A stretch of DNA of 64,000 bases from contig OZ244034.1 of assembly GCA_965215185.1 (NCBI GenBank), positions 1,888,001-1,952,000 on the forward strand, given 5' to 3'. Positions 3,612 through 20,440 of this stretch are shown piece by piece. This stretch comes from Acidimicrobiia bacterium (lineage in GTDB: Bacteria; Actinomycetota; Acidimicrobiia; Spongiisociales; ZC4RG35). A program made the translations under genes and the position numbers. Numbering within the stretch: the first letter of the stretch is position 1; every line of letters begins with the position of its first letter. Below the pieces are notes generated by a model. It saw only the letters and a list, made by a program, of their open reading frames with translations. It ran no database searches and was not told the DNA's origin.

Positions 3612-4310
3612 TTGACGCATAAGGCTGAAAAGGAGCAACAACACATAGACCTTGAAGCCATGCAGCGGGAGATGTACCTGCTCCCCGAAGCAGCCCGCCT
3701 GCTTCGCATAAATACCACCACCCTGAAAAGATGGCTGGAAGGAGACGAGCGGCTCCCGCCCGTGATTCGTCCCCAAGCCACAGGATCCGACGCGGTGACC
3801 TGGGGAGAGTTTGTGGAAGCAGGTTTTCTGCGGGAATATCGTAGGTCCTTGAGCCTCCAGAGGATACGTCCCGCTATTGCGAAACTACGGGAAAAATTTG
3901 ATGTGCCTTATCCCTTGGCGCATTACAAGCCCTTTATCGGACCAGGGCGCCATTTGACACTGGAGGCGCAACAGGAGGCACAAGTACCCCCAGATCTGTT
4001 CATCGTCTGGGAGATAGCAACAGGACAGTTGGCGCTCGCTGATTCAGCCTTGGGCTACATCGAGAAAGTCGACTTTGCTGCAGAAGGCAGGCGTTGGGCA
4101 GAGCGTATTCATCCAGCGGGACGGGAATCCCCGGTAGTTATCGATCCCGATTACTCGTTCGGAGCGCCAACCATCCGGGGCATCAAGACCTACATCATCA
4201 CCGAACTCGTGGAAGCGGGTGAATCTCTGGAATTCGTAGCAGAGGGCTACTCGCTTTCGGTGGCTGAAATAGAAGCCGCGGTCGCTTATGAAGGGAAAGC
4301 CGCTGCCTAA
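3612..4310 (+). CDS. DUF433-domain antitoxin (VapB45/Rv2018-like, N-terminal HTH)
   Basis: EAARLLRI..TTLKRW HTH, TWGEFVEAGFL, and C-terminal IDPDYSFGAPTIRG...AGESLE.VAEGY DUF433 region. Confidence 0.8.
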   Translation: MTHKAEKEQQHIDLEAMQREMYLLPEAARLLRINTTTLKRWLEGDERLPPVIRPQATGSDAVTWGEFVEAGFLREYRRSLSLQRIRPAIAKLREKFDVPYPLAHYKPFIGPGRHLTLEAQQEAQVPPDLFIVWEIATGQLALADSALGYIEKVDFAAEGRRWAERIHPAGRESPVVIDPDYSFGAPTIRGIKTYIITELVEAGESLEFVAEGYSLSVAEIEAAVAYEGKAAA

Positions 4311-4752
4311 GAGAAAGCCGTCCACGGTCCGCTTCTATATGGATGCTGACGTACTCGGTCTCGCCAAGGTCATTTCCAAAATCCGGCCTGATGTCACGTA
4401 CCCGGGCGATCCGGGCGGGGAGATCAGAAAGCGGGTACGACCACCCTGCCCGATCACCGATACTGAAACCACGGACCTCATATGGATCCCACAAGTCGCC
4501 CAGCGAGACTGGACCATCATCACCCGAGACCGGAATATTTCACGAAAACCAGCGGAGCGCGATACCGTGATCGCTTACAACGCTAAGCTTTTTGTCTTTA
4601 TTAAGCCCATCAATAAGAACTTTGATCTGTGGTCTCAACTGGAAGTCCTGATGACTCGATGGCGCGACATCGAACGACTCGGCGAAGAATCCGGGCCATT
4701 TATCTATAACGTCCATCGCACCACCGTCAATAGGGTCTGGCCAGCGGTTTAG
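4288..4752 (+). CDS. PIN-like toxin (VapC45-like)
   Basis: RFYMDADV, D..WIP.VA.RDW.IITRD.NI...PAE motifs; overlaps the antitoxin 3' end. Confidence 0.75.
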   Translation: MKGKPLPKRKPSTVRFYMDADVLGLAKVISKIRPDVTYPGDPGGEIRKRVRPPCPITDTETTDLIWIPQVAQRDWTIITRDRNISRKPAERDTVIAYNAKLFVFIKPINKNFDLWSQLEVLMTRWRDIERLGEESGPFIYNVHRTTVNRVWPAV

Positions 4753-5340: not shown

Positions 5341-6183
5341 ATGAGCCTTCCCATCAACTTTCTCTCCGATTTTGGAACCGACGACGAATTCGTTGGCGTA
5401 GTTCACGGCGTTTTAGCCCGGATTGCTCCCCAGTCGCGGGTGATCGACATCAACCATGGGATCGCGGCGGGGAGCGTACGGGCCGGCGCCCTTTCCCTGC
5501 TCCGCGCCGTTCAATACCTTCCCGCCGGAGTGACCCTGGCGGTGGTCGATCCCGGAGTGGGGACCGACCGCCGGGCCTTGGCCGTGGAAACCCTTGAGAT
5601 GACTTTCGTCGGACCTGACAACGGCCTCCTCTCACCCGCGGTGGCCATGATGGGAGGAGCCCTTCAGATGGTCTCGATTGAAAACCCCGACTATCGCCTG
5701 CCGGGCGCCGGCAACACCTTCTGGGGACGGGATGTCTTTGCTCCCGCCGCCGGGTCGTTGGCGGCGGGAGAAGCGCGCCTGGCTGACCTTGGCCCTTCGC
5801 TCGGACCCCATGAAGTCACTCCCCTGCTACTGCCTCTGTCGGAAATAACCGCCGGCCGGGTGAGCGGTGAAGCCTGGTGGGTGGACACCTACGGCAACGT
5901 CCAAACCAACATCTCCCCAGACGACCTGCAGGTCGCCGGCCTGGAGACCTGCTCGGAGCTTGCGGTGCGATTGGGCGCCTCCGTCCACCACATTCGGATG
6001 GCAGAGACCTACGCCCAGGTGGGCAGGGGCGAGATGCTGATCCATGTCGACTCGGCGGGGATGCTGGCCTTGGCGATGAGAGGAGGGCGGGCCTGTGACC
6101 GGCTGAGCCTCACCGAGGGGAGGTCAGTGGTCATGGAGAGAACATCAGTCCCCACAGTTGCACCACCGCCGCCACCACGATGA
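5341..6183 (+). CDS. SAM hydroxide adenosyltransferase / chlorinase-fluorinase family (DUF62)
   Basis: FLSDFG..D.FVG, VVDPGVGTDRR, GPDNGLL, TFWGRD and D.YGN..TNI motifs. Confidence 0.85.
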   Translation: MSLPINFLSDFGTDDEFVGVVHGVLARIAPQSRVIDINHGIAAGSVRAGALSLLRAVQYLPAGVTLAVVDPGVGTDRRALAVETLEMTFVGPDNGLLSPAVAMMGGALQMVSIENPDYRLPGAGNTFWGRDVFAPAAGSLAAGEARLADLGPSLGPHEVTPLLLPLSEITAGRVSGEAWWVDTYGNVQTNISPDDLQVAGLETCSELAVRLGASVHHIRMAETYAQVGRGEMLIHVDSAGMLALAMRGGRACDRLSLTEGRSVVMERTSVPTVAPPPPPR

Positions 6184-6602: not shown

Positions 6603-7640
6603 CTATTCCGCCTCGGTCTCTGCGGTTTCGGCCTGGTCGGGCTCCCCGGTCCCCTCTTGCCCTCCTCCTTCACCTGGCGGCTCTTCGCCGACGATCAAGC
6701 CGCACTCCTGCAGAGTCTCATCGGGGTCGGCCCCTCCGAAGCGGATCCGCTCGAAGGCCACCACCGAGGCTATTTCCTCTGCGGTGTTGCTGGTGCCGAA
6801 GGCGGACATGAAGCCGCCTCCACCCACAGGTTTGGCCAGATCGCCATAGGTATCGATTCCCGCGTCCAGAAAACCCCCGGTGGCCAGAGTCACCCACTCT
6901 ATGTGGTCCGAGCAACTGGAGAATGTGGATAGCACGGTGGCGAGCGCCGGCCCCACTCCCCCTTCGCCGTTGGCCCCATGACATCCCGCACAGGTCTCGA
7001 AAATCGCTTCCCCCACCACCAGAAATTCACCCGCCGGGTCTTCCGCCCGACCGGTGAATTCGCTGCCGTCGCAGTTGACCACCGTGGCATTGAGCCGATC
7101 GACCGCCAACTCCACACCTCCATCAACACAACCCGCCCGCGCCGAGTTCCCCGCCAGATACAGCAAACCGATAGTAGGTATCACCAGGAATAGGGCGGCG
7201 AGCCAACGAGGCAGACTGGATGAGGTTCTCTCGGTCAGGTGAGCGGTCGGCACCGACACCACCACCGGGAAAGAAACCGCTTCTTTGAGGGTGACCTCCG
7301 ACGGCGTCGGCGGTGGGGCGGCCACGATGGGGACGGAGGGAACAGGGGCAGCGGTGGGGATCGCCGGGGTAGGCGCCGTGGGAATCGCAACAGGCGGGGG
7401 GGTGGCAGGCGGGGTAGGCGCCATCGCCGCAGTTGCGGTGGGGGCGGCCGCAGTTGGCGCGGCGGGGGTGGGCGCAGAGGCCGGAGCGGAGGCTGCTGGA
7501 GCAGATCCGCCACCTGCCCAAGCCGCCAGAATCTCCTCGACGGGGACCCCGCTTGCGGCCGACCGCGCTTCGGCCGAGCGCTGGACTAAAACCTCCGGGG
7601 CGCCCATGGCTTCAGCCGCTCTGGCCAGATTTTCACTCAT
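6603..7640 (-). CDS. Membrane-anchored monoheme cytochrome c with N-terminal RSAEA module and Ala/Pro linker
   Basis: CAGCH, GEGGVGPAL and distal MSAFG; one TM helix; third gene of a ccoNO-like operon. Confidence 0.85.
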   Translation of the reverse strand: MSENLARAAEAMGAPEVLVQRSAEARSAASGVPVEEILAAWAGGGSAPAASAPASAPTPAAPTAAAPTATAAMAPTPPATPPPVAIPTAPTPAIPTAAPVPSVPIVAAPPPTPSEVTLKEAVSFPVVVSVPTAHLTERTSSSLPRWLAALFLVIPTIGLLYLAGNSARAGCVDGGVELAVDRLNATVVNCDGSEFTGRAEDPAGEFLVVGEAIFETCAGCHGANGEGGVGPALATVLSTFSSCSDHIEWVTLATGGFLDAGIDTYGDLAKPVGGGGFMSAFGTSNTAEEIASVVAFERIRFGGADPDETLQECGLIVGEEPPGEGGGQEGTGEPDQAETAETEAE

Positions 7641-8463
7641 CGGATCCGCCGTCGGTCAAGACTCGGGACTCCACCAGGTAAGCCACCAAAGAATCCATCG
7701 AACTGCCCCCGTAGGACAAATGCCCACCCTCACCCGAGAGCACCGCTTGGATGTCGTCGGGCGCCATCCGGTTCCCTACATTGGCCAAGTCCGGGCCATA
7801 ACGCTGCCGCCCGATCACTTGGTTGGAGTCGGACAGCGTCACCCCGCCCTGTCCCGCCAAGGCGGCCAATTGGGCGTCGGCAATTATGGGGCGGACCATT
7901 TGGGTATGGCAGGCCGCACACCCCTCCGCCAGATACTCGCCCTGACCCTGCAGAGCCATCTCACTATAGGGGATCTCGGAGTGGAGCACTCCCCTACCCA
8001 AACCCGAGATCGTGGGGACCACCAAGGTGATGGCCAGGCACAGGACCAACAGGGCGGCTGCGCCGAAGAAATACCGCAAAGGCCGATCCACCCGACCCGT
8101 CAAGATCGGGGGCGGTCCCTCGACCGTCGGGGCATAGACCACTACCGGTCTCTGAGGAGGAGAGGATACCGTAGCCGCGACGGCGGCAGGAGCGGCTGCC
8201 GGGGCCTCAGAGGGTGCGGGAGTGGCAGCAGGTACGGGCGCAGGGCGTGCAACGGCAGGCTCGAGTTCGGCGCGGGCAGGCGACGGTGCGGGGGCGGCGG
8301 CAGGCGGTGCTTCAGGGGCGGGTTCCGGTCCCTGTCCCGCCCAAGCTCTCAGGATTTCTTCGACAGAGACGCCACTGGCGCTGGCCCGGGCTTCTGCGGA
8401 GCGTTGCACCAACTCGGTGGGAGCTCCCACGACCTGCGCGGCGGCCTCCAACAGCTCGCTCAT
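7633..8463 (-). CDS. CcoO/FixO-like monoheme cytochrome c (cbb3 subunit II homolog)
   Basis: EGCAACHTQMVRP and G.QRYGPDLANVG match the CcoO pattern; N-terminal RSAEA module, linker and TM helix. Confidence 0.8.
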   Translation of the reverse strand: MSELLEAAAQVVGAPTELVQRSAEARASASGVSVEEILRAWAGQGPEPAPEAPPAAAPAPSPARAELEPAVARPAPVPAATPAPSEAPAAAPAAVAATVSSPPQRPVVVYAPTVEGPPPILTGRVDRPLRYFFGAAALLVLCLAITLVVPTISGLGRGVLHSEIPYSEMALQGQGEYLAEGCAACHTQMVRPIIADAQLAALAGQGGVTLSDSNQVIGRQRYGPDLANVGNRMAPDDIQAVLSGEGGHLSYGGSSMDSLVAYLVESRVLTDGGSDE

Positions 8464-9866
8464 TCTTCTTCCTCTTCCCGCATCTGAGATTCCGACGGTT
8501 CCGATCTGCCGGAATCGGCAGGTTCCTGGTCAGCGGCCAAGGCGAGAATCTCCTGGGCGGCCGGTCGTCCAGAGGTGAAGGTCCTCAACACCGCCAAACA
8601 GAAGGAGAGCTGACCTACCAGCGTCAGCAGACCCGACAGTATGGACAATCCCACCAGCAACGAGGCCATACCCACCAGACTCTCCCAACCATCCCCGGTG
8701 GGGCTGACACCGGTATAGGACCCTCCCGTCCAACCGTAACCCGACATCAGTCCGGCGCCCACCAACAGGGCGGAAGTCAAGCCCACCCCCCAGAAGGTGA
8801 AGCGCAGATGAAGCTGGGCAAGCCCCACTCCGGCCATCTTCCGGCCAGTGATCGACGGAAGCGCCTGATACGACCAAGCCGCCACCAGCAGCCCGCCGGC
8901 TCCGAACAGGGCAGCGTAGAGCACACCGTCCCAAAACGGCGTGAGACCCACCACCGCCGCCGCGGAACGGACGGCGCCGAAGCTGGTCAAAGCCGCGGTC
9001 ATCAAAGCGAAAAAGACACCCGCCAAGGCGGCCGCCACCACGGGACGCGTTCTTCGCTCCGCCCAGAACTGATCGGCGGTCAAGGCGAAGTTGGCGGCGT
9101 TGGCCAAAGCAGACACGGGAAGGGCGAGGGTCATCAGGAATGCCACCGCTTCCAACCAACCGGGAACCGGGCCGAAAACCAAGGGGGCGACTCCCGACCA
9201 TGCCGACGCGAAAGCCAGCGACCAGAAACCCACTCTGGCCAACTGCCGGCTGGCGAGAGGGTTTCCCGTCTCCTTCACCAAGGCGTAGTAGGCAAGCCCG
9301 ATTCCCATTCCCACCACCCACAGGTTGGCGAGTCCAAACAGAGCGACCGACTCGGATAGGGCTCCACCCATCGCCGAGGACGCGGGAAGCGCCCCCACCA
9401 GATACAGCAACGGAAGCCACACCACCCCACCCATGGCATACCACAAAGAAACATAGATATTGGGTTCTTGCCGATGCCGGACCGTAGAGATGGTGACCAA
9501 CATCGGCGTCAGCAGGGTCAGGAACAACGGAAGGGCGACCCACCAGGGAAGAGAGAAAGGACCCGTCCCATCTCCCCAACCCAACAACACCACTACCGCG
9601 CCCACCACGGTCACCAGGGCCGTGGCCACTCCCCCCGCCAATGCCAATCCTTCGCCGCGCAGGCGGGCGCCGGTGAGCCTGGGCAGCAAATAGTAGATTC
9701 CACCGACCAGCGACAGGGTCAACCAGCCCATCACGGCCAGCAGCAGGGCGATCGGGCGGATGCGACCGTAGGAGAAGGGCCCGGTCAGCGTCCCCGGGAA
9801 CCGCAGTTCCACCATCGCCGCCACCCACACGACCCCGGCCAGGGCCAAAAAGGCGGTGGAGATCAC
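8460..9866 (-). CDS. CcoN-like polytopic membrane protein lacking heme/Cu ligands (cbb3 subunit I homolog)
   Basis: About 12 TM helices with SYGRIRP, YYLLPRLTG, IYVSLWY and GFWSL scaffold motifs of CcoN; only two His in the protein. Start codon uncertain. Confidence 0.75.
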   Translation of the reverse strand: MISTAFLALAGVVWVAAMVELRFPGTLTGPFSYGRIRPIALLLAVMGWLTLSLVGGIYYLLPRLTGARLRGEGLALAGGVATALVTVVGAVVVLLGWGDGTGPFSLPWWVALPLFLTLLTPMLVTISTVRHRQEPNIYVSLWYAMGGVVWLPLLYLVGALPASSAMGGALSESVALFGLANLWVVGMGIGLAYYALVKETGNPLASRQLARVGFWSLAFASAWSGVAPLVFGPVPGWLEAVAFLMTLALPVSALANAANFALTADQFWAERRTRPVVAAALAGVFFALMTAALTSFGAVRSAAAVVGLTPFWDGVLYAALFGAGGLLVAAWSYQALPSITGRKMAGVGLAQLHLRFTFWGVGLTSALLVGAGLMSGYGWTGGSYTGVSPTGDGWESLVGMASLLVGLSILSGLLTLVGQLSFCLAVLRTFTSGRPAAQEILALAADQEPADSGRSEPSESQMREEEEE

Positions 9867-10181
9867 GATGTGCCATTTGGCAGCGGTATCAGAACCTAAG
9901 GTGTCCGACCACCCAGCGTAAGGCGCGACTCGCTTTTGCGGATGTCCGACTTGATTATTCTTTGTCGTATTCAGAGCGCTACCCCCGGTGGCTCCGGAAA
10001 TGAAAGGTTAGCCATGCTCGCCGCTCCAAAAGATAGCAAGAAAGAAACCCCACCGGGCGCAAGCGGCGCCGAGGGGCGTCAGGGCGGCCTTGGGATGAAA
10101 AAGGGTGCTAAGACTTTGTTTGAAGCACGTTCCGGTGTAAAAATAGAAGTGCTTCGACCCCGGAAGGCCATCTGGTAAGAG

Positions 10182-10811
10182 ATGCACCGCCTCGCTTCTA
10201 TAAGCTACCGAACAAGAATTCTCGTCGGTTGGTCGTCGCTATTGCTGGGAACAGGCCTCCTGGCGGTCGCCGTGCTGTGGATCCACTACTCGAAGCTGCC
10301 GCAGACCGAGATTGTCAACGGAGTGTCGACGGCGGTGGTGGTTGACTACTTCAACTGGATACCCCGAGGCTGGTTCTGGAAAAGCCTCGGTTATCTGGCC
10401 GCCCTGAGCGCCTCCCAGATGATGTTGGTGGGAGCGGCCTTCCTCTGGGTGCTTAACCAAAAGATGACCTGGGCGAGAGCGGCGTTTGCCGCCTTTTTGA
10501 TCTGGATCGAGCTGGTGATGGTGTTCGGGATCGTTCCATCCGAGTGGCTGAACCTCTCTCAGACCGACCTGGACTGGTCGGGACAGCGGATCGCGTTACG
10601 GATCCCTCCGGCCTTGATGCTGGGCAACGAGGTCTCGATTAGTTGGGCGGCCATCAAAGACTCCATTTCAGGCGCCTACAACGTGGGAACGCTGGCCGCC
10701 GCCGGCGTCTTTGCCTACCTGCTCCAGCAGGTCTACAAGCCGCCCAAGAAGCAGGCCGCCAAGGTCAAAGTGTCACCCTATGGGCGGCCGCTGGTGAAGG
10801 GAGATCGTTGA
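10182..10811 (+). CDS. Conserved membrane protein heading the Rieske/cytochrome b operon
   Basis: About 4 TM segments, FGIVPSEWL and C-terminal SPYGRPL; 1 nt from the ferredoxin gene. Confidence 0.7.
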   Translation: MHRLASISYRTRILVGWSSLLLGTGLLAVAVLWIHYSKLPQTEIVNGVSTAVVVDYFNWIPRGWFWKSLGYLAALSASQMMLVGAAFLWVLNQKMTWARAAFAAFLIWIELVMVFGIVPSEWLNLSQTDLDWSGQRIALRIPPALMLGNEVSISWAAIKDSISGAYNVGTLAAAGVFAYLLQQVYKPPKKQAAKVKVSPYGRPLVKGDR

Positions 10812-10812
10812 G

Positions 10813-11262
10813 ATGCCCCGCGGTGTTGTGGACGAGACCCCGCCCTTTCGCGACGATTACCAGCTCACCCTGGTCGACAACAACTTCTATAACGGAAAGA
10901 TCCGTCCCAAACAGTTTCTCCACATCGATCAGTCCGAATGCATCCTTTGCGAGGGCTGTGTGGACATCTGCCCGTGGAAATGCATCTTTTATCTCTCCAT
11001 GGAGGCCATCGACGAAGCGGTCAATGTCGACGATCCCCGCGAGGACCTCACCAACTATGGTTTCTTCGTTGTCGACGAGAACGAGTGCACCCGTTGCGCC
11101 CTGTGCATCGACCGCTGTCCCACCGGCGTCATCTCACTCGGCAAATTCGAAGGTTCTCTGGCCGCCCAGGCTGAAGAAATGGGGCTCAACTCGTCGCCCT
11201 GGGAGGTGGATACCGGCCAGAGGGACTTCAAACATGGCTATACCTATGGAATGCGCTGGTAA
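10813..11262 (+). CDS. 2x[4Fe-4S] dicluster ferredoxin
   Basis: CILCEGCVDICP and CTRCALCIDRCP; no signal peptide. Confidence 0.9.
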   Translation: MPRGVVDETPPFRDDYQLTLVDNNFYNGKIRPKQFLHIDQSECILCEGCVDICPWKCIFYLSMEAIDEAVNVDDPREDLTNYGFFVVDENECTRCALCIDRCPTGVISLGKFEGSLAAQAEEMGLNSSPWEVDTGQRDFKHGYTYGMRW

Positions 11263-11272
11263 GGAGTGAAGC

Positions 11273-12061
11273 GTGAGTAGACAAAACGGCAAACAGGGCC
11301 TTTTGACCAAAGCCCGTACCCATGCGACCGGTTTGATGGGACGGGTCTGGTCCGGCCAGTTCATGGACTCGGTTCTGCGCCCCGGCTCCCCCTTCAAGAA
11401 GGGATACACCGACACTCCTCGTAACCGCTCCTATGTGATCATGAACAACGTGCTGTATCACCTCCATCCGGTGAAGGTGAAACGACACGGTGTGAAGCTC
11501 TCCTACACCCTGTGCCTGGGGGGGATGAGCTTTTTCCTGTTCATTCTCCTGACCATCACCGGCATTTTCCTCATGTTCTATTACGCCCCCACCGCCGAGC
11601 GGGCCTACATAGATGTGCAGGCGCTGTCCACCGACATCGCGTTCGGCTCCCTGATGAGGAACATGCACCGATGGGGCGCCCATCTGATGGTGCTGACCGT
11701 GTTCCTCCACATGTCGAGAGTGTTTTACCACGGGGCTTACAAGCCGCCCCGCGAGTTCAACTGGATAGTGGGAGTCATCCTGTTGCTGTTGACCCTCCTC
11801 CTCTCCTTTACCGGGTATCTGCTTCCCTGGGACCAGTTGGCGCTGTGGGCCGTGACGGTGGGCAGCAACATGGCCGGCTTCGTTCCTGTCATAGGCGCGC
11901 AGGTGAAATTTGCCCTTTTGGGCGGAGTGGAGGTAACCGCGGGAACGCTTTTGCGATGGTATGTGCTCCACGTTCTCTTCCTGCCCTTCATCATCGTGAT
12001 CTTCCTGGCAGTCCATTTCTGGAGAGTCCGCAAAGACGGCGGCATCTCCGGCCCTCTCTAA
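11273..12061 (+). CDS. qcrB: Cytochrome b6-type subunit of a Rieske/cytb complex
   Basis: Four His ligands (HRWGAH...LH; LH-x14-H), CLGG heme-ci cysteine, [16 protein letters not shown], and a GISGPL C-terminus as in cytochrome b6. Confidence 0.9.
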
Positions 12062-12080
12062 CCATGCAAGGTATGCGCTA

Positions 12081-13028
12081 GTGCCACAAATCCCTGAAGA
12101 ACTGCTGAGACGCTCCGCCGAGGCGAAGGCCAAAGCGCTGGGTTTGCCGGTGGAACAGGTGCTGGCCGAGATGCGAGGGGAAGCTCCGGTCACCGAGATA
12201 GCCGCCGAGTCGGTGTCGGTGCCCGCTCCCCGCTTCGTTCCCACCACAGCCCGCATCCCTGTTTCCGAGATGCCCCCCGACCCGCAGCCGCCCGACCCCG
12301 CCTCGGCGCCGCCGCCCGCCATCACGGCAGTGGACGAGGTGGAAGAAGCCCAAGCCGAAGTAGCCGAGACTCCCGCCGCTGAAGCCCCCACCGCTTCGGA
12401 ACCGGGCGCGCCGGCCGGGGAGAACAGCGCCGGGAACGGACGGCTGGCGGCGGTCGTGTCGGTTCGACCCTCGGTGCCGCCCACCGACCTGCCCAAAGGC
12501 GTACGCCATCAACGACTGCTCACGGTGGTCAAAGCCCGAGCCATCCAACAGGTAAAGGCCGATCCCACCGACAAGGTGAACACCTGGCCGCATCTGATGA
12601 TCACCGAGTTCACCGCCCTCTTGGCGATGACCGCCTTTCTCCTGGTGCTCTCGGTCATCCTTCAGGCGCCTCTCCTGGAGTCGGCCAACTTCAACTCCAC
12701 CCCCAACCCGTCCAAGGCGCCCTGGTACTTCTTGGGCCTGCAAGAGATGCTCTCCTACTTCGATCCGCAGATCGCCGGGGTGACCGTGCCGACGGTGATC
12801 GGGTTAGTGGGATTCATGATGATTCCCTACATAGACCGCAATCCCTCCACCCGCCCGTCGGACCGCAAACTGGCCATCATGCTTTACACCATCTTCCTGG
12901 CCGGGTCGGCGACCCTCACCATCCTGGGGGTGCTGTTCCGTGGCCCCGGGTTCAACTTCGTCTACCCATGGGTTGATGGGGTGTTCTTCGATGACCTGAA
13001 AGACTGGGTTGATTTTGGTGGGCACTGA
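12081..13028 (+). CDS. Subunit IV-like (cytochrome b C-terminal half) with N-terminal RSAEA module
   Basis: WPHL, TPNPSKAPWYFLGLQE (PEWY equivalent) and PYIDRNP; N-terminal module plus Pro/Ala/Glu linker. Confidence 0.85.
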   Translation: MPQIPEELLRRSAEAKAKALGLPVEQVLAEMRGEAPVTEIAAESVSVPAPRFVPTTARIPVSEMPPDPQPPDPASAPPPAITAVDEVEEAQAEVAETPAAEAPTASEPGAPAGENSAGNGRLAAVVSVRPSVPPTDLPKGVRHQRLLTVVKARAIQQVKADPTDKVNTWPHLMITEFTALLAMTAFLLVLSVILQAPLLESANFNSTPNPSKAPWYFLGLQEMLSYFDPQIAGVTVPTVIGLVGFMMIPYIDRNPSTRPSDRKLAIMLYTIFLAGSATLTILGVLFRGPGFNFVYPWVDGVFFDDLKDWVDFGGH

Positions 13029-13056
13029 TGGCCGTTAACTGGATTCGGACGGCCTG

Positions 13057-13920
13057 ATGGGCGGCGTCGAACTGATCATCATCGGTGTGGCGGCGGTCGC
13101 CATCGCCGCCGCGGTGGGTGCCTTCACCATCGCCTTCCGCCGCGCCGAACCCGACCCCGCTTCTCTGTGGCCCAAGAAGCTGGAGCGTGGCGCCCGGAAA
13201 GCGGACCGTTCCACCTCCACCATGGAACTGGTGCTTACCACCGAGGCGGATGCTGTGGACGAGGACGAGGAAGTCGATGCACCAGAATACGAAGCCCCGG
13301 CCCCGGTGGCAGAGCGCTTGGCGCCCATCACCGAATCCCAGGTAATCGTTGAGGCGTCTGCAGAGGAGGTGGGGGTAACCCGCCGACAGTTCTTCAACCG
13401 GTCCCTGGCCGCCATGTCGGTGGCCTGGTTCGGGATCATGGGAATCGAGATCCTGGCCTTCCTGTGGCCCAAGATCACCGGAGGATTCGGAAGCGACGTC
13501 GACGCCGGGAGCGCCGCCGACCTGGTTCCCGAGATGACCGACACCGCGGGCCTGGTAACTCCGGCTTTCATCCCCGACGCCCGCGCCTACGTGGTACCGG
13601 CGCCCGTTGAGATGAGTCAGCAATTCGCTGGCAGAGATGTGGCGGCCGGAGGGCTGATGGCGCTCTACCAGCGGTGCGTCCACCTGGGATGCCGGGTGCC
13701 CTGGTGCGACGACTCCCAGGGCTTCGAATGTCCCTGCCACGGCTCCAAATACAACTCGGTCGGAGAGTATTTTGCTGGCCCCGCACCCCGAAATCTGGAC
13801 CGTTTCTCGGTCCACGTCACCGACGATGGGCGTCTGATAATCAGGACCGGGGTTATAGTGGAAACCCCCCGGGCTAACGCTCAGTCTGTGTCATATCCGC
13901 AAGGCCCCTCCTGCATATAG
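13057..13920 (+). CDS. qcrA: Rieske 2Fe-2S subunit
   Basis: [24 protein letters not shown]; Tat-like TRRQFF before the TM helix; additional N-terminal TM. Confidence 0.9.
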
Positions 13921-13930
13921 GGGAGATATT

Positions 13931-15637
13931 GTGGATTCCTCGCTAGTAATAACCCTGGTGGTGGTGGGAGCCGTAATCTGGCTCTCCTTTTTGGGAGTGG
14001 CCGCCCTGCGCTCCCGACGGCGGGAAGGAATCCCTCCCAACCAGGCGCCGGGCGTCACCGACGACGCTTTGGAAACCCGCCGCCTGGAACGTATCCAACA
14101 GGCCGCCGTCCTGCTGTCGGCCTTCCTGGCGGTGGGGCTGGCTGTTTACTACCTGAGCGAAACCGATCGACAGGAAAGCTTCGTGGACCAGTTCCACGAG
14201 GAGTCGGTGGAACGCGGCGCCGAACTGGTCGGGCCCGACGAGGCCGACTGCTGGAGTTGTCACGGCCCCAGCGGAGTGGGAGGTGTGGCCAGCTATGTGG
14301 AGAAGCGCACCGGGGTGAACGTGTCATGGTCGGCGCCTTCACTCGATGACATCTTCTTGCGTTATGACCGTGACATAATCACCTATTGGGTGACCTATGG
14401 GCGAGGCAACTCCCCCATGCCGCCGTGGGGCACGGTGGGAGGCGGTCCCATGAACGAACAACAGGTTTTCGACATCGTCAACTACCTGGAAAGTATCCAA
14501 CTCTCTCAGCAGAACATCCTCCGCAAGGCCGACACCATCGTGGTGGGTCAGCTGAGTGTTCTGGAGAATGCCGACCAGGCCCTGGAAAAGGCCATTATCG
14601 AACAGCGCCAACTGATCGCCGACATCGAGGCGGCGCCCCGGTACGCCGAGATGATGGCCAATCTGGTAGCGCTCGCCCGCCAGAGCCTGAATGGCTCGGA
14701 CCGGGGGATCGATCGCGACGGTGACAACTTGTCGGACGTTTCAGAAGTGACGATCTCCCAACTGACCGCTGCCGCAGCGGCCCTGTTCGACATCAATCAG
14801 ATCGAGGCTCTGACATTCGATCCGCAGAATCCCGCCACTGACGGCCGTCCCGACGCAGATGTAGCCGACCATGCCATCTCCCATCTGCAGGAGGTGGTGC
14901 CCCAGGTGCCGATTCTCGAGTTGCGCGTGCAGTCCATCAGAACGGCGCTGCTGGCCGAGGACGAGGAGGACTCCGACGGTGACCAACTCTCCGATCGGGC
15001 GGAAAGAGTGCTAACCGCCGAACTGGCCATCGCCAGGACGGCGCTTCGCCCTAATACCTTGACAGTGGTGAACCTCGACCCGGAGCGTGCTTCTTCGGGT
15101 GGGGGAGTCAACGATGATCAAACCGCCGCCACCGCCGTCTCGGGTATGGAGGCCGCCGCCGTAAACCTGGCGGTACGAACCGAAAACGGCGAGCGGCTGC
15201 TCGGTCCGGCCCGGGCGGGACTGGAAGAGTTACTGGCCGCCCAGGAGCAGCGGAAATGGGAGATAGACCTGGAAGGCGTGGCCGCGGCCGCCTTCTTTGG
15301 AAATTCGGAGCAGGCCTCCCGGGCGGTCGGTGTGTTCACCGGGTATTGCGCGCGCTGCCACACTTCCGGCTGGTCGGCGGGGACCCCCTACGCTGCTCAA
15401 CCCGGCTCGGGGGGATTCGGGCCGGCGCTTTGGAAGGGCCGACCGCATGTTCAGTTCCTAAACAAGGAGAAACTGCGCTCCTTCCTGTTGGTGGGAGCGG
15501 TTGCGGACCGGCCTTACGGAGTGAACGGATTCGGAAATGGCCAGATGCCCGCCTTCGGGACGGTGCTCTCATCCGACGACCTGGACCTGCTGGTGGAGTA
15601 CTTGTGGGCAGGGAATCTTAACGGCAAGGGAACCTAA
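13931..15637 (+). CDS. Membrane-anchored diheme cytochrome c with a large insert
   Basis: CWSCH...MPPWG and CARCH...MPAFG; two N-terminal TMs; two DxDGDxLSD motifs in the insert. Confidence 0.85.
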   Translation: MDSSLVITLVVVGAVIWLSFLGVAALRSRRREGIPPNQAPGVTDDALETRRLERIQQAAVLLSAFLAVGLAVYYLSETDRQESFVDQFHEESVERGAELVGPDEADCWSCHGPSGVGGVASYVEKRTGVNVSWSAPSLDDIFLRYDRDIITYWVTYGRGNSPMPPWGTVGGGPMNEQQVFDIVNYLESIQLSQQNILRKADTIVVGQLSVLENADQALEKAIIEQRQLIADIEAAPRYAEMMANLVALARQSLNGSDRGIDRDGDNLSDVSEVTISQLTAAAAALFDINQIEALTFDPQNPATDGRPDADVADHAISHLQEVVPQVPILELRVQSIRTALLAEDEEDSDGDQLSDRAERVLTAELAIARTALRPNTLTVVNLDPERASSGGGVNDDQTAATAVSGMEAAAVNLAVRTENGERLLGPARAGLEELLAAQEQRKWEIDLEGVAAAAFFGNSEQASRAVGVFTGYCARCHTSGWSAGTPYAAQPGSGGFGPALWKGRPHVQFLNKEKLRSFLLVGAVADRPYGVNGFGNGQMPAFGTVLSSDDLDLLVEYLWAGNLNGKGT

Positions 15638-15640
15638 GTA

Positions 15641-16000
15641 ATGCGTGAACTGTTTCGCTCGCTGCTATCGGCCAACCTGTTCGTCACCGGGATCATCCTG
15701 CTGGTGACGGCGATCTTGGTCTTCTACGGCACCGTCTACCTTCTCAACTACACCAACCTAGGAAAGAAGCTGGCGTTCCTGGTGACCGGGGCCGGGATCT
15801 CGGCCTGGATGACCATAGGCAGCATGCTCTTCGTCCTCTACGCTCCCCGCGGCCCCCGCCCGGCCAACATCGAGGGACTCAACGCCTTCGAAGTGCGGAT
15901 CATCCCCATCACTTTCACAGTGGTCTCGGCCGTTCTTTTCATCGGATTCCTGGTAGCCCTCCACCAATACGAAGAAGCCCGAGAAAAAGCCGACCTTTAA
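15641..16000 (+). CDS. Small 3-TM membrane protein, last gene of the operon
   Basis: Three hydrophobic segments; 3 nt after the cytochrome c stop. Confidence 0.7.
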   Translation: MRELFRSLLSANLFVTGIILLVTAILVFYGTVYLLNYTNLGKKLAFLVTGAGISAWMTIGSMLFVLYAPRGPRPANIEGLNAFEVRIIPITFTVVSAVLFIGFLVALHQYEEAREKADL

Positions 16001-17504: not shown

Positions 17505-17611
17505 TACCTCAAGACGAGCCAACCCCTGAGGATGGTCTTGAGGTAGGCCTACCTCTCGCCCTCAAGTAGGCCTACCCTTCGTCCTCAAATAGGTCTACCC
17601 CTCGTCCTCCG
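17505..17611. repeat. 11-bp inverted repeat plus three tandem ~23-bp units containing GTAGGCCTAC-type palindromes
   Basis: tacctcaagac/gtcttgaggta at 17505-17545; units at 17543-17565, 17566-17588 and 17589-17611, the last containing the flotillin stop codon. Confidence 0.75.
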
Positions 17612-18893
17612 GCGAGTCTTGGGAACTGCGGCGTAGCGAGTCGAGGATGTCGACGCCGGTAACAGCGTCTATCTGTTCGGTTAGGGCCACCAAAGCAGCG
17701 GGGAGTTGGGCAACCAGGCCGGGGATCCCTCCTCCACCGCTGCCCCGGTCGCTGTTGGTGTCCACCACGGCCACCCGGTCGATGTTGACCCCCTGCACGG
17801 TGGCGACGATCTTGTCTATGAGTTCGGGAAGCATGTTCAACACCAGCACGTGATGCCCGTCCTGGCCCGCCGCCTGGTATTGGTCGGTCAGGAGTTTGAA
17901 CACTTCCACTTGGGCTCTACCGTCTTCAATGATGCTCGCCGCTTCGGCCCGGGCTCGTAGCTGTTGGGCTTCCAAGTCGGCTCGGGCGGGAACCACCACC
18001 GCCGCCTCCACGCGTCGTGTCTCCAGCTCGATGCGCTGGCCTTCCAACTCCTGACTGGCCACGACTCTGGCGACATCTCCCGCCACCAGAGCTTCCGCCT
18101 CACGTGCGTTAGAGACGGCCTCCAGTTCGGCGGTACGTACCCGCAGGCCGTTGTTTTCCACCACGATCGCCCTGTCCGCCTCAAGGCCAGCGACCTGTCC
18201 CACTTGCCGGGAGGCAGCCTCGGCCTGTTCCGCTTCGGCTTTGCGTTCTGCTTCCACCACCCGGGCATTTCGAATCACCTCGGCGGTGAGAAGGCGCCCC
18301 ACCGATGTCAGATAATGGACATCGTCGGTGACGTTCTGGATCTTGAGGACATCCAGTTCCAGGCCCAAGGTCTTGATGTCGTCGTCGGCCTCGTCGATCA
18401 ACTGATGGGAGAATTTGAGCCGATCTTCGTTCACCTCTTCCGGCGACAGGGTGGCTAGGACGCCCCTCAGGTTGGCTTCCAGGGTCTCCTTGGCGATCTG
18501 ACCGATCTGGGCGCTGGAACGCCCCAGGAATCTCTCGGCAGCGTTCTCCAGCAGCCCTTCTCGGCTCGAAACCTTGACGTTGGCAATGCCCGCCACATTG
18601 AGAGGAATAGTCCCCCGCGAATAGGCGTTGGTCACCGCAACCTCCAACGGAATGGTGTTCAGACTCATCCACTGAACATTCTCGATGAGGGGAATCCGGA
18701 TCGTCCGTCCTCCCTGCAGCAGGCGGTATCCCACCTTTCGCCCATCACTCAGCGCCCGTTTCCGTCCGGAAATGACCGCTACCCGGTTGGGTGGGCAAAT
18801 AATTATCAACGACTTAATGATGAAGATCAGGATCAACAACACCACGGCCAGGCCGACACCGGCTAACACCGGTAAACTTAAGTTATCACTCAT
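17595..18893 (-). CDS. Flotillin (SPFH domain) protein
   Basis: N-terminal TM, PPN...ISGR, AAERFLG, TLEANLRGVLA.LSPEEVNEDR and AEA-rich coiled coil. Confidence 0.9.
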   Translation of the reverse strand: MSDNLSLPVLAGVGLAVVLLILIFIIKSLIIICPPNRVAVISGRKRALSDGRKVGYRLLQGGRTIRIPLIENVQWMSLNTIPLEVAVTNAYSRGTIPLNVAGIANVKVSSREGLLENAAERFLGRSSAQIGQIAKETLEANLRGVLATLSPEEVNEDRLKFSHQLIDEADDDIKTLGLELDVLKIQNVTDDVHYLTSVGRLLTAEVIRNARVVEAERKAEAEQAEAASRQVGQVAGLEADRAIVVENNGLRVRTAELEAVSNAREAEALVAGDVARVVASQELEGQRIELETRRVEAAVVVPARADLEAQQLRARAEAASIIEDGRAQVEVFKLLTDQYQAAGQDGHHVLVLNMLPELIDKIVATVQGVNIDRVAVVDTNSDRGSGGGGIPGLVAQLPAALVALTEQIDAVTGVDILDSLRRSSQDSPEDEG

Positions 18894-19396
18894 TAACTAC
18901 TTCCTCTTTCTTTTTCTTGCCTTGCGACGAGAGCCACCGCGCCGTCCACCTCCACGATGGTGACCCTCTCGCCTTTCTTAATCAGATCCTCCCGGTTGGC
19001 GGGTGAGGCGCTGATCCTATGGCGCGCCCCGGCCGCGTCGACAACTACCTGCCCCCTGTGTTCGGTGGACACTCCCAACACCACTACGGCTGTTGACCCC
19101 TCAAGATCTGCATTGGTAACCTCGCTGGACGCTTCGGTGCGGCGCAGCCAACCAAACAGAGCGTTGTGGAAAGATGCTCCCAGAACACCCACTCCGGCGG
19201 CGATCAATCCCCCGGAAAGAGCGGAAAGGCTCACCCAGACCGTGATAAGACCCGCTAAACCAAAAAACGCCGCTCCAAAAGAGACAGCGCTGAACGAGAT
19301 CCATGAAAAGAAACCTCCACCCGAACCGGTATCAGAATCCCCCCCCAATTCGCCTCCGAAGGCAAAAATCAGCAACAACGGCAAACCGACCGCCAT
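18893..19396 (-). CDS. NfeD-like membrane protein (flotillin partner)
   Basis: TM segments followed by an OB-fold region (G..A.V...GQV...I.KGERV.IVEV); translationally coupled to flotillin. Confidence 0.75.
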   Translation of the reverse strand: MAVGLPLLLIFAFGGELGGDSDTGSGGGFFSWISFSAVSFGAAFFGLAGLITVWVSLSALSGGLIAAGVGVLGASFHNALFGWLRRTEASSEVTNADLEGSTAVVVLGVSTEHRGQVVVDAAGARHRISASPANREDLIKKGERVTIVEVDGAVALVARQEKERGSS

Positions 19397-19462
19397 CGCG
19401 AAAATATATAAGAAAAGTACGGCCGCTCCCTACCTAGCTTCAGCCTTAACCCAGACTAGTCG

Positions 19463-19601
19463 TCCACCCGTGGTTAGGTCTAATAGACGGGCGAATCGTT
19501 TGCCGGCGATGACCAGGGCCATCAGCGTCACCACCAACGGGGCGTCTATGAAAACCACGGGGAAGCCGTCGCACTGGCAGCAACACCCGGCACTCGGCTA
19601 G
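19463..19601 (-). pseudogene. Degenerate copy of the 3' end of the ABC permease gene (20639-20785)
   Basis: Encodes GFPVVFIDA-PLVVTLMALVIAGKRFARLLDLTTG versus GLPVQITDALPFVVTLLALVVARKRFARLLDLSTAG. Confidence 0.85.
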
Positions 19602-19603
19602 GG

Positions 19604-20440
19604 CTAAAAGACCGGCTTACCGCGATCCTCCAAACAACGCGCACCATCGTCGTTGGTGTCCAACGCCACATCCCGTGCCACGTCTACAATGAACGCTTCC
19701 TGGCGTGTGACGTCCTCCAGTGCGAACTTGGTCATCACCGCTATGGCATAGGGTCGGTTCCTCAGAAACACAATTCCAGCATCGCAGCGGACCCGTTCCA
19801 TGCCGCCCGATTTGTTCGCAACTACCAAGTCGGACGGTACCGCCCGATTCAACGGCGCCGATTTGGGCTTGCCGATGATACGCAGGACCTGCTCCGCCAC
19901 TTTGGATGACGGCTTACCTTGATACAGCATCTCCAGCATCGTGACAAGTTCGTTCGGCGTCGAAACATTCTCGTCACCCCTGTGTATAGCCTCGCTGTCC
20001 ATCATCTTGCGCCGCAACTTTGTGGCTGTCAGCCCCATATCACCCAACAACCTGTTGGTTGCCTCCATGCCGGCCCAATCTATGCACATGTTCGTTGCAG
20101 TGTTGTCCGACACAACGATCATCAGGATGGCGATATCCAGCACTGACAACTCGGGCTCACCCTCCATATAGTGGATTACGCCACTACCTGTTCCGCACAT
20201 CTGCGGCTTGATTCTGACGCGCTCATTGAGGTCAATCTCACCCCTCTCGCCACGGCTCAATAGCTGTGTCAAGATGTGTATTTTGATAGTGGATGCGGTG
20301 GGGAACTCCTCGCTACCACGTACGGACACTGCGTCTCCACGTTTCAGATCCAGCACCGAAATACCCGCTACTCCCGCGAACTTCTCAATCTTGTGAGTTA
20401 ACCGTTCCTCCAAACGCTCCCAAAGCCTCCTGTTGCTCAT
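19604..20440 (-). CDS. Serine hydrolase, class A beta-lactamase-like (C-terminus possibly damaged)
   Basis: ASTIK (SxxK), SDNTATN and KSG motifs; AAGGAG RBS; no signal peptide. Confidence 0.8.
   Translation of the reverse strand: MSNRRLWERLEERLTHKIEKFAGVAGISVLDLKRGDAVSVRGSEEFPTASTIKIHILTQLLSRGERGEIDLNERVRIKPQMCGTGSGVIHYMEGEPELSVLDIAILMIVVSDNTATNMCIDWAGMEATNRLLGDMGLTATKLRRKMMDSEAIHRGDENVSTPNELVTMLEMLYQGKPSSKVAEQVLRIIGKPKSAPLNRAVPSDLVVANKSGGMERVRCDAGIVFLRNRPYAIAVMTKFALEDVTRQEAFIVDVARDVALDTNDDGARCLEDRGKPVF

Follow-up and report, generated by a model that had tools for sequence, protein, structure and literature searches.

Why would an actinobacterium keep, beside the genes of its complex III, an oxidase operon whose catalytic subunit has lost all six histidines that bind haem and copper? 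The question is raised by the locus at positions 6603-16000 of a 64,000-nucleotide stretch of DNA (the window) from an Acidimicrobiia bacterium (NCBI GenBank assembly GCA_965215185.1, contig OZ244034.1, positions 1,888,001 to 1,952,000 of the forward strand), the genome of which is complete on a single contig of 3.12 Mb. Relatives of its proteins bear the source names Acidimicrobiia bacterium or Actinomycetia bacterium. The plus strand of the locus carries the genes of a cytochrome b6-type complex, and the minus strand carries three genes in the order ccoN-ccoO-ccoP. The answer we favour, and hold to be rather probable, is that the operon on the minus strand descends vertically from that of a cbb3 oxidase, of which it is a relic (hereafter the relic), and serves as an electron-relay scaffold beside the b6c complex, on the way toward the caa3 oxidase.

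A preliminary description of this DNA had placed ten open reading frames in two divergent, tightly packed operons. All ten were found at those places, and its family assignments agree with our family searches for eight of them. Within each operon the genes overlap or are separated by gaps of 1-29 bp. For comparison we used a sample of 251 genomes of the class, in which we examined the neighbourhoods of 40 relic-bearing loci and of 20 loci from families with no relic match anywhere in the genome (f-numbers below label families and L-numbers loci). The arrangement is far beyond chance, and the same layout is present in 38 of the 40 related loci.

The first relic gene (8460-9866, minus strand) encodes a 468-aa homologue of COX1/CcoN that matches PF00115 with 89.6 bits, a pseudo-cbb3 subunit I predicted to be without cofactors, which the source databases name "cbb3-type cytochrome c oxidase subunit I". 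When it is aligned with CcoN of R. capsulatus (6xkw_n), the positions of the six ligand histidines are taken by A40, a deletion, A227, P228, V315 and Y317, and only two histidines remain in the whole protein. The cross-link tyrosine, which in His-complete actinobacterial CcoN lies six residues before the HH pair, is replaced by S221. The earlier label "pseudo" is therefore borne out, as all six haem and CuB ligands and the cross-link tyrosine are absent. The loss is general in the class: at the five alignable ligand positions, to which the class comparison is confined since the sixth falls in the deleted stretch, histidine is missing in 39 of 40 homologues, and the remaining one (L018) has a single histidine, at the position of A227.

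The fold, on the other hand, appears to be intact. An AlphaFold2 (AF2) model of the protein, with a predicted local distance difference test score (pLDDT) of 80, has the 12-helix fold of the haem-copper oxidases. The top seven Foldseek matches of the model are all cbb3 CcoN (E 1e-17 to 4e-16, template modelling (TM) scores 0.83-0.85), with A- and B-family oxidases ranked below them. An identity as NO reductase was rejected, since 4xyd and 3o0r reach a TM score of only about 0.70, as compared with 0.83-0.85 for cbb3, and the metal ligands are absent. The score against TIGR00780, the CcoN equivalog model, is 106 bits for a cut-off of 583.15. In ten close pairs the ratio of nonsynonymous to synonymous substitution rates (dN/dS) of the relic was 0.03-0.28, a range like that of the Rieske protein and the 209-aa membrane protein of the neighbouring operon in the same pairs; dS was saturated in many of the ten, and the least saturated pair gave 0.107. 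These ratios indicate that the CcoN homologue is kept under purifying selection and that the gene is not decaying. Strongly conserved polar residues across 17 homologues are R35, R63, T65, D99, R132, E134, R207 and R342. Judged from its sequence, the protein probably has no site for low-spin haem, high-spin haem or CuB and has been retained as a membrane scaffold of 12 helices that carries two c-type cytochromes.

The two cytochromes have kept their haem motifs. The CcoO-like monohaem cytochrome c (276 aa; 7633-8463, minus strand; PF02433, 46.9 bits) consists of an N-terminal domain (NTD, residues 1-45), a linker, a transmembrane helix and the motif CAACH. In the place of CcoP there is a membrane-anchored cytochrome c with one haem (345 aa; 6603-7640, minus strand; PF00034, 27 bits; PF13442, 24.1 bits), which likewise has an NTD (residues 1-45), a Pro/Ala linker and a transmembrane helix, followed by a c domain with CAGCH. 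The CxxCH motif is retained in 35 of 35 CcoO-like homologues and in 35 of 35 homologues of the second cytochrome, which, together with the ligand loss, supports the previously proposed non-catalytic CcoNO/cytochrome c module with c haems that would still be in place. CcoN and CcoO are fused in one reading frame in several lineages. The CcoO-like protein scores 42.5 bits against TIGR00781 (CcoO), for a cut-off of 200.65, and the Met-ligand motif of CcoO, S-x-M-P-x-Y, reads GGHLSY here. Histidine takes the place of this methionine throughout family f1, in the form H-(P/L), and the CcoO-like haem of this family probably has His/His ligation.

The NTD is a feature that the relic shares with the complex encoded on the other strand. 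The stretch of ~45 residues is common to both relic cytochromes and to subunit IV of the b6 complex, in which it is shortened (residues 1-35). Its consensus is L.AAA.alG.PE.LV.RSAEARA.A.G..VE.VLA.WAGG, and a Pro/Ala-rich linker and a transmembrane helix follow it. Haem c domains must be periplasmic and the N-terminus of PetD lies on the n-side of the membrane, so the NTD is expected to be cytoplasmic. A hidden Markov model (HMM) built from the three proteins recovers the cytochrome c, the CcoO-like protein and subunit IV with E values of 7e-27, 3e-28 and 3e-17, respectively, and finds exactly four copies in the genome at E below 1e-14, the fourth at E 1.6e-15 and the next match at E 0.29. The fourth copy forms the N-terminus of P0121, a multi-transmembrane protein of 394 aa without a family that adjoins the caa3 operon. 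Homologues of P0121 were found in f1 (13/13), f4 (5/5), f5 (1/1) and f12 (26/27), with one short N-terminal match in f2 (1/5) and none in other families with the P0121 query, and they adjoin caa3 in 13 of 14 loci. A 443-aa membrane protein without a family also lies beside the caa3 operon (with P0121: G000:C1:2756174-2758914, L065 3174-5914); it is there in 3 of 14 loci by tblastn.

The NTD is present in 38 of 40 relic loci as compared with none of 20 relic-less loci. Its copies are often in tandem and are often identical between the two relic cytochromes of one genome. Among 1.84 billion representative proteins worldwide, 455 carry it (E ≤ 0.001), some in as many as 7 repeats. When the 56 longest of these were classified, 19 matched Cytochrom_C/CBB3, 8 FixO and 6 Cytochrom_B_C (33 in total), 19 matched nothing and 4 were marginal, two of them falling under the curated cut-off and two being MIF matches that barely exceed it and have no separate matched stretch. 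In this set, wherever a Pfam family is recognisable, the sequences place the NTD only on respiratory subunits of these kinds. The AF2 model of the NTD (pLDDT 88) has three helices, for which Foldseek found no significant solved relative in the PDB (best E 3.4). VIA-align gave a best Z of 5.1 to designed helical repeats and a Z of about 4 to ANTAR-type domains, that is, a generic three-helix arrangement. Pfam yielded sub-threshold HTH-like matches on tandem NTDs only and nothing on single ones.

The complex on the plus strand is of the b6 type. Its cytochrome b6 (11273-12061; PF00033, 163.9 bits) has cyanobacterial and chloroplast b6 as its top solved relatives (1vf5_A, E 2.4e-48), while structures of actinobacterial QcrB reach only about 1e-22. 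In the alignment with 1vf5_A, C81 falls on Cys35, the ligand position of haem cn, and four of four haem-b histidines are matched. The cytochrome b is split, the PetD-like subunit IV being encoded by a gene of its own (12081-13028; PF00032, 32.1 bits) with the shortened NTD and a long linker. The NCBIfam models of the actinobacterial QcrCAB bcc complex, which has an unsplit long QcrB, score far under their cut-offs, with 114 against 500 for NF050120 (QcrB), 34.4 against 275 for NF050121 (QcrA) and 17.8 against 200 for NF050122 (QcrC), and the locus does not belong to that complex. The b6f-like architecture distinct from QcrCAB that had been proposed for this locus thus stands, given the QcrB score and the b6-type relatives. 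The b6 is, however, also above the NCBIfam cut-off for the ExtP equivalog (305.2 vs 290), with the ExtQ model below its own (59.9 vs 150). This ExtP match is a likely source of wrong gene names; the sequence context of Rieske protein and dihaem cytochrome c argues for a b6c complex over a name from the ExtP/ExtQ system of selenite/tellurite reduction.

The Rieske [2Fe-2S] subunit (13057-13920, plus strand; PF00355) has the motif CVHLGC...CPCHGS, and each of the 38 loci in which the gene was detected retains CxHxGC...CxCH. The next gene (13931-15637, plus strand; PF13442 and PF00034) encodes a membrane-anchored dihaem cytochrome c of 568 aa. Its two haem motifs, CWSCH and CARCH, are separated by 366 residues, and between the haem domains there is a helical insert of ~270 residues with two DxDGDxLSD motifs that look calcium-binding. 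The inter-haem distance is 276-436 residues in the NTD-bearing lineages (36 of 36 proteins with two motifs), as compared with 111-256 in 19 class loci without the NTD. A cytoplasmic 2x[4Fe-4S] ferredoxin-like subunit (10813-11262, plus strand; PF00037 and related families) is present in 39 of 40 relic loci and 20 of 20 relic-less loci, with two CxxCxxCxxxCP motifs in every locus where the gene was complete. The operon begins with the gene of a 209-aa membrane protein (10182-10811, plus strand; 38 of 40 relic loci and 12 of 20 relic-less loci by tblastn), for which there is no Pfam or NCBIfam family and the ESM Atlas gives only actinobacterial hypothetical proteins. It ends with that of a 119-aa membrane protein (15641-16000, plus strand; 37/40 and 12/20), also without a family in Pfam or NCBIfam. 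Apart from this cytochrome b6, the genome encodes no cytochrome b, which makes this operon the one that encodes the complex III of the cell; by its gene content, the operon is predicted to specify the organism's sole quinol:cytochrome c oxidoreductase, of b6c type, with a ferredoxin-like and two small membrane subunits.

Where would the electrons go? The preliminary description had let them pass to an unknown acceptor. An obvious candidate exists, namely the caa3 oxidase, which is encoded by an operon of ctaC (with a cytochrome c domain), ctaD, ctaE, ctaF and ctaG. It has the only His-complete COX1 in the genome, and neither a bd oxidase nor NirK was found there. As the sole intact haem-copper oxidase of the genome, caa3 is the likely acceptor.

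The linkage of the two operons is conserved in related genomes: of the 40 loci, 38 have them divergent and less than 1 kb apart, and in the remainder the distance does not exceed 4.5 kb. The unlinked operons that would have spoken against the preliminary description were thus not observed. In the 38, the relic is divergent from the gene of the 209-aa protein, with 246-788 bp between the match ends. In the other two (f13 and f16) the b6 operon is 3.7-4.5 kb from the relic and in the same orientation. The co-distribution that had been expected is one-sided: the relic accompanies the b6 operon, but the b6 operon was also found without the relic in 20 of 20 loci checked. The relic itself was detected in 109 of 251 class genomes with a single-protein query and the b6 gene in 242 of 251, a tally that includes the unpublished genome G212. 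In the 20 loci of relic-less families, ferredoxin and b6 are present in all 20, and subunit IV, Rieske protein and dihaem c in 19 each; a profile HMM search (E below 1e-3) found the relic near the b6 operon in none of them. Since the b6 operon is class-wide and also occurs alone, the relic is an accessory to the complex and not its obligate partner.

Outside the class, a relic-type match was found in 30 of 301 genomes (including the unpublished G327), and 14 loci were examined. Four of these loci (in f46, f66 and f68) have a His-complete CcoN, with YGHN, Y-x5-HH and HAH, and are candidates for real cbb3 oxidases by their motifs. CcoN is partly degenerate in six loci of f52 (L068 of genome G314, L069-L072 and L079) and His-less in four loci of f54. 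The protein of L068 has kept only the two histidine ligands of low-spin haem b, a possible intermediate, as far as its residues tell, between an oxidase and an empty shell. In a quick tree of CcoN the groups follow taxonomy, and the branching of His-complete and His-less forms is a polytomy. The relic of f52 and f54 lies 5-7 kb from the b6 operon wherever the contig reaches (6 of 10 loci). Between the two, the f52 locus L069 (3528-8323) has CcmF, CcmE, a CcmC-like protein and CcmB, that is, Ccm system I, and the f54 locus L076 (4589-9180) has ResB and a CcsA-like protein with DsbD and a thioredoxin-like protein, the ResB/CcsA-like genes standing directly before the relic on the same strand.

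We picture the relay as follows. Quinol would be oxidised at the b6 complex, and electrons would leave it through the Rieske protein and the dihaem cytochrome c. They would then pass to the haems of the CcoO-like and CcoP-like cytochromes on the scaffold and, finally, to the cytochrome c domain of the caa3 oxidase. The NTD, which is common to subunit IV, the two relic cytochromes and the caa3-linked P0121, would either tether the three modules to one another or recruit them to one common partner. The sequences themselves establish the gene content, the loss of the ligands, the retention of the haem c sites, purifying selection, synteny and the distribution of the NTD; from these we infer the direction of electron flow, the role of the NTD and the physical association of the modules, which could amount to a supercomplex of the III-IV type. 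A bolder version is possible, although we hold it to be doubtful: the NTD would act as a cytoplasmic "velcro", through homotypic or common-partner binding, that joins three parts into one respirasome, namely the b6c complex, caa3 and the cbb3 shell, devoid of cofactors, together with the two cytochromes that belong to it. The dead oxidase would then have persisted over hundreds of millions of years for no other purpose than to form a structural and relay bridge between complexes III and IV, as the fossil of a b6c-cbb3 supercomplex that existed in an ancestor and was rewired to another terminal oxidase.

Several points weigh against a relay to caa3. In many families the b6 operon does its work with no relic present, so that complex III as such can dispense with the relay. 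Electrons for caa3 could also come from further small c-type cytochromes that are encoded in the genome. The probable His/His ligation would lower the potential of the CcoO-like haem, which would then be less readily seen as a donor to caa3. Lineages with the NTD are also those that have the dihaem c insert and directly adjacent operons, which may reflect one ancestral event rather than repeated co-evolution. What is more, genes intervene between the operons in f13, f16 and two other classes, and those identified (in one f52 and one f54 locus) belong to cytochrome c maturation, which fits a role of the relic in biogenesis too.

Of the alternatives, the one that survives best, though we consider it unlikely, would make the relic a separate branch for the entry or exit of electrons, in which its two c cytochromes serve a periplasmic or extracellular partner, e.g. 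a metal or sulfur compound, with no bridge from b6 to caa3. The probable replacement of Met by His at the CcoO-like haem suggests a low potential, unusual for an oxidase donor, and the large insert of the dihaem c with its two motifs could dock something else; however, the conserved locus offers no candidate partner enzyme, and none of the 74 loci compared has an equivalent of the gene for a solute-binding protein that lies next to it here. The NTD, moreover, ties the module to subunit IV and to the protein adjacent to caa3, and retention of the trait in the streamlined, ~1-Mb genomes of f12 points to a core rather than a facultative function. It is quite improbable that the relic acts in the biogenesis of cytochrome c or of the complex, for example in haem handling or as an assembly chaperone for b6c, instead of being a stable electron-transfer subunit. 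While the Ccm genes of the f52 locus lie between the b6 operon and the relic, and the ResB/CcsA-like genes of the f54 locus stand right before it, in the present genome some 1.4 Mb separate the Ccm genes from the relic (CcmE at 518 kb), ResB was not found, the partners of the relic are themselves haem c proteins with conserved sites, and the scaffold is without haem-binding residues. A CcoN-like protein that is still catalytic or ion-translocating, with non-His ligands or no metal, is very improbable despite the polar residues conserved in 17 homologues and the purifying selection, because the six ligand positions and the tyrosine are now Ala, Pro, Val, Tyr, Ser or deleted and are not conserved among homologues, and we know of no haem-copper oxidase chemistry without these ligands. 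The haem-copper oxidase variants treated in those parts of Murali et al. 2024 (PMC11214002) on which we draw all keep their metal ligands.

The relay scaffold that we prefer has likenesses to three known systems. With cbb3 CcoNOP (P. stutzeri 3MK7; bc1-cbb3 supercomplexes 6XKW and 8SMR) it shares the order N-O-(P-like), the 12-helix fold of subunit I, and CcoO-like and CBB3-type c partners with CxxCH. According to the titles of structure entries, the cbb3 oxidase of proteobacteria docks onto complex III; the genes of the relic likewise lie beside those of complex III. Unlike cbb3, the relic has no haem or CuB ligands and no cross-link tyrosine, its P-like subunit is monohaem, the Met motif of CcoO is altered, and both cytochromes bear a cytoplasmic NTD. 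With cytochrome b6f and the firmicute b6c complex the plus-strand operon shares the split cytochrome b, the b6-type histidine spacing, the haem cn cysteine, the GISGPL C-terminus, a PetD-like subunit IV and the Rieske protein. It differs from them in having a dihaem c where they have cytochrome f or a fused monohaem, a 2x[4Fe-4S] ferredoxin within the operon, two extra membrane proteins, an NTD on subunit IV and about 70 extra N-terminal residues on b6. The QcrCAB bcc-aa3 system of Mycobacterium and Corynebacterium (6ADQ, 7QHO) is of the same phylum, and also has the exit route through a dihaem c and an aa3-type oxidase, here the likely acceptor; its supercomplex is our working model. In contrast to QcrCAB, the cytochrome b is split and b6-like, the oxidase is caa3, and there is an extra module derived from cbb3.

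Literature searches turned up no description of a CcoN without its ligands, of the NTD or of the b6 operon of Acidimicrobiia. The shared NTD with its fourth, caa3-adjacent copy, the restriction of the NTD to respiratory subunits, the insert of the dihaem c and the occurrence in other classes of relatives that are His-complete or half-degenerate are new here. If our reading is true, the relic would clearly exemplify a haem-copper oxidase that has become a pseudoenzyme and is still under selection, with living intermediates that are His-complete, restricted to low-spin haem, or empty. A class-wide b6-type complex with a built-in ferredoxin and an NTD specific to respiratory subunits would be further undescribed features of actinobacterial respiration. 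The relic is probably an electron-relay scaffold and not the O2-reducing enzyme that its database name implies. A metagenome paper (PMC8357290), in the part of it that we cite, credits seven Acidimicrobiia metagenome-assembled genomes with cbb3 oxidases. Should these calls rest on the relic gene, conclusions about high-affinity, low-oxygen respiration drawn from them would be wrong for a widespread class, which includes a family with ~1-Mb genomes that carries the relic.

The spacer between the divergent operons (9867-10181), presumably with both promoters, is at most 315 bp long. The reading frame of CcoN remains open upstream of the GTG at 9866, over 9867-10010 of the window (minus strand), and the peptide encoded there (ALNTTKNNQVGHP...KWHIV), which precedes the first ATG, GTG or TTG, is conserved in homologues. 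As the frame is both open and conserved, the start probably lies further upstream; the true start codon is probably a rare one by these sequences, ATT at 10001-9999 or CTG at 9974-9972. The divergent intergenic region, given as ~315 bp in the preliminary description, is therefore probably nearer 180 bp, the length that follows if CcoN starts at ATT 10001. A promoter scan found no match to the sigma-70 consensus within the spacer. The DNA was traced to four sequencing runs of one study, and no RNA run that contains it is listed.

A few neighbouring genes may be mentioned. A gene for a SAM hydroxide adenosyltransferase (SAM_HAT), at 5341-6183 of the window, is kept beside the relic operon in 34 of 40 loci and has no evident functional link to it. 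Adjacent genes with DUF433 and PIN_10 domains, at 3612-4752, have the layout of a toxin-antitoxin pair in a region of lower local G+C (0.55-0.59). On the other side of the locus, positions 17595-20440 carry the gene of an SPFH/Band 7 protein (432 aa), a 167-aa gene downstream of it and then a gene of the Beta-lactamase2 family.

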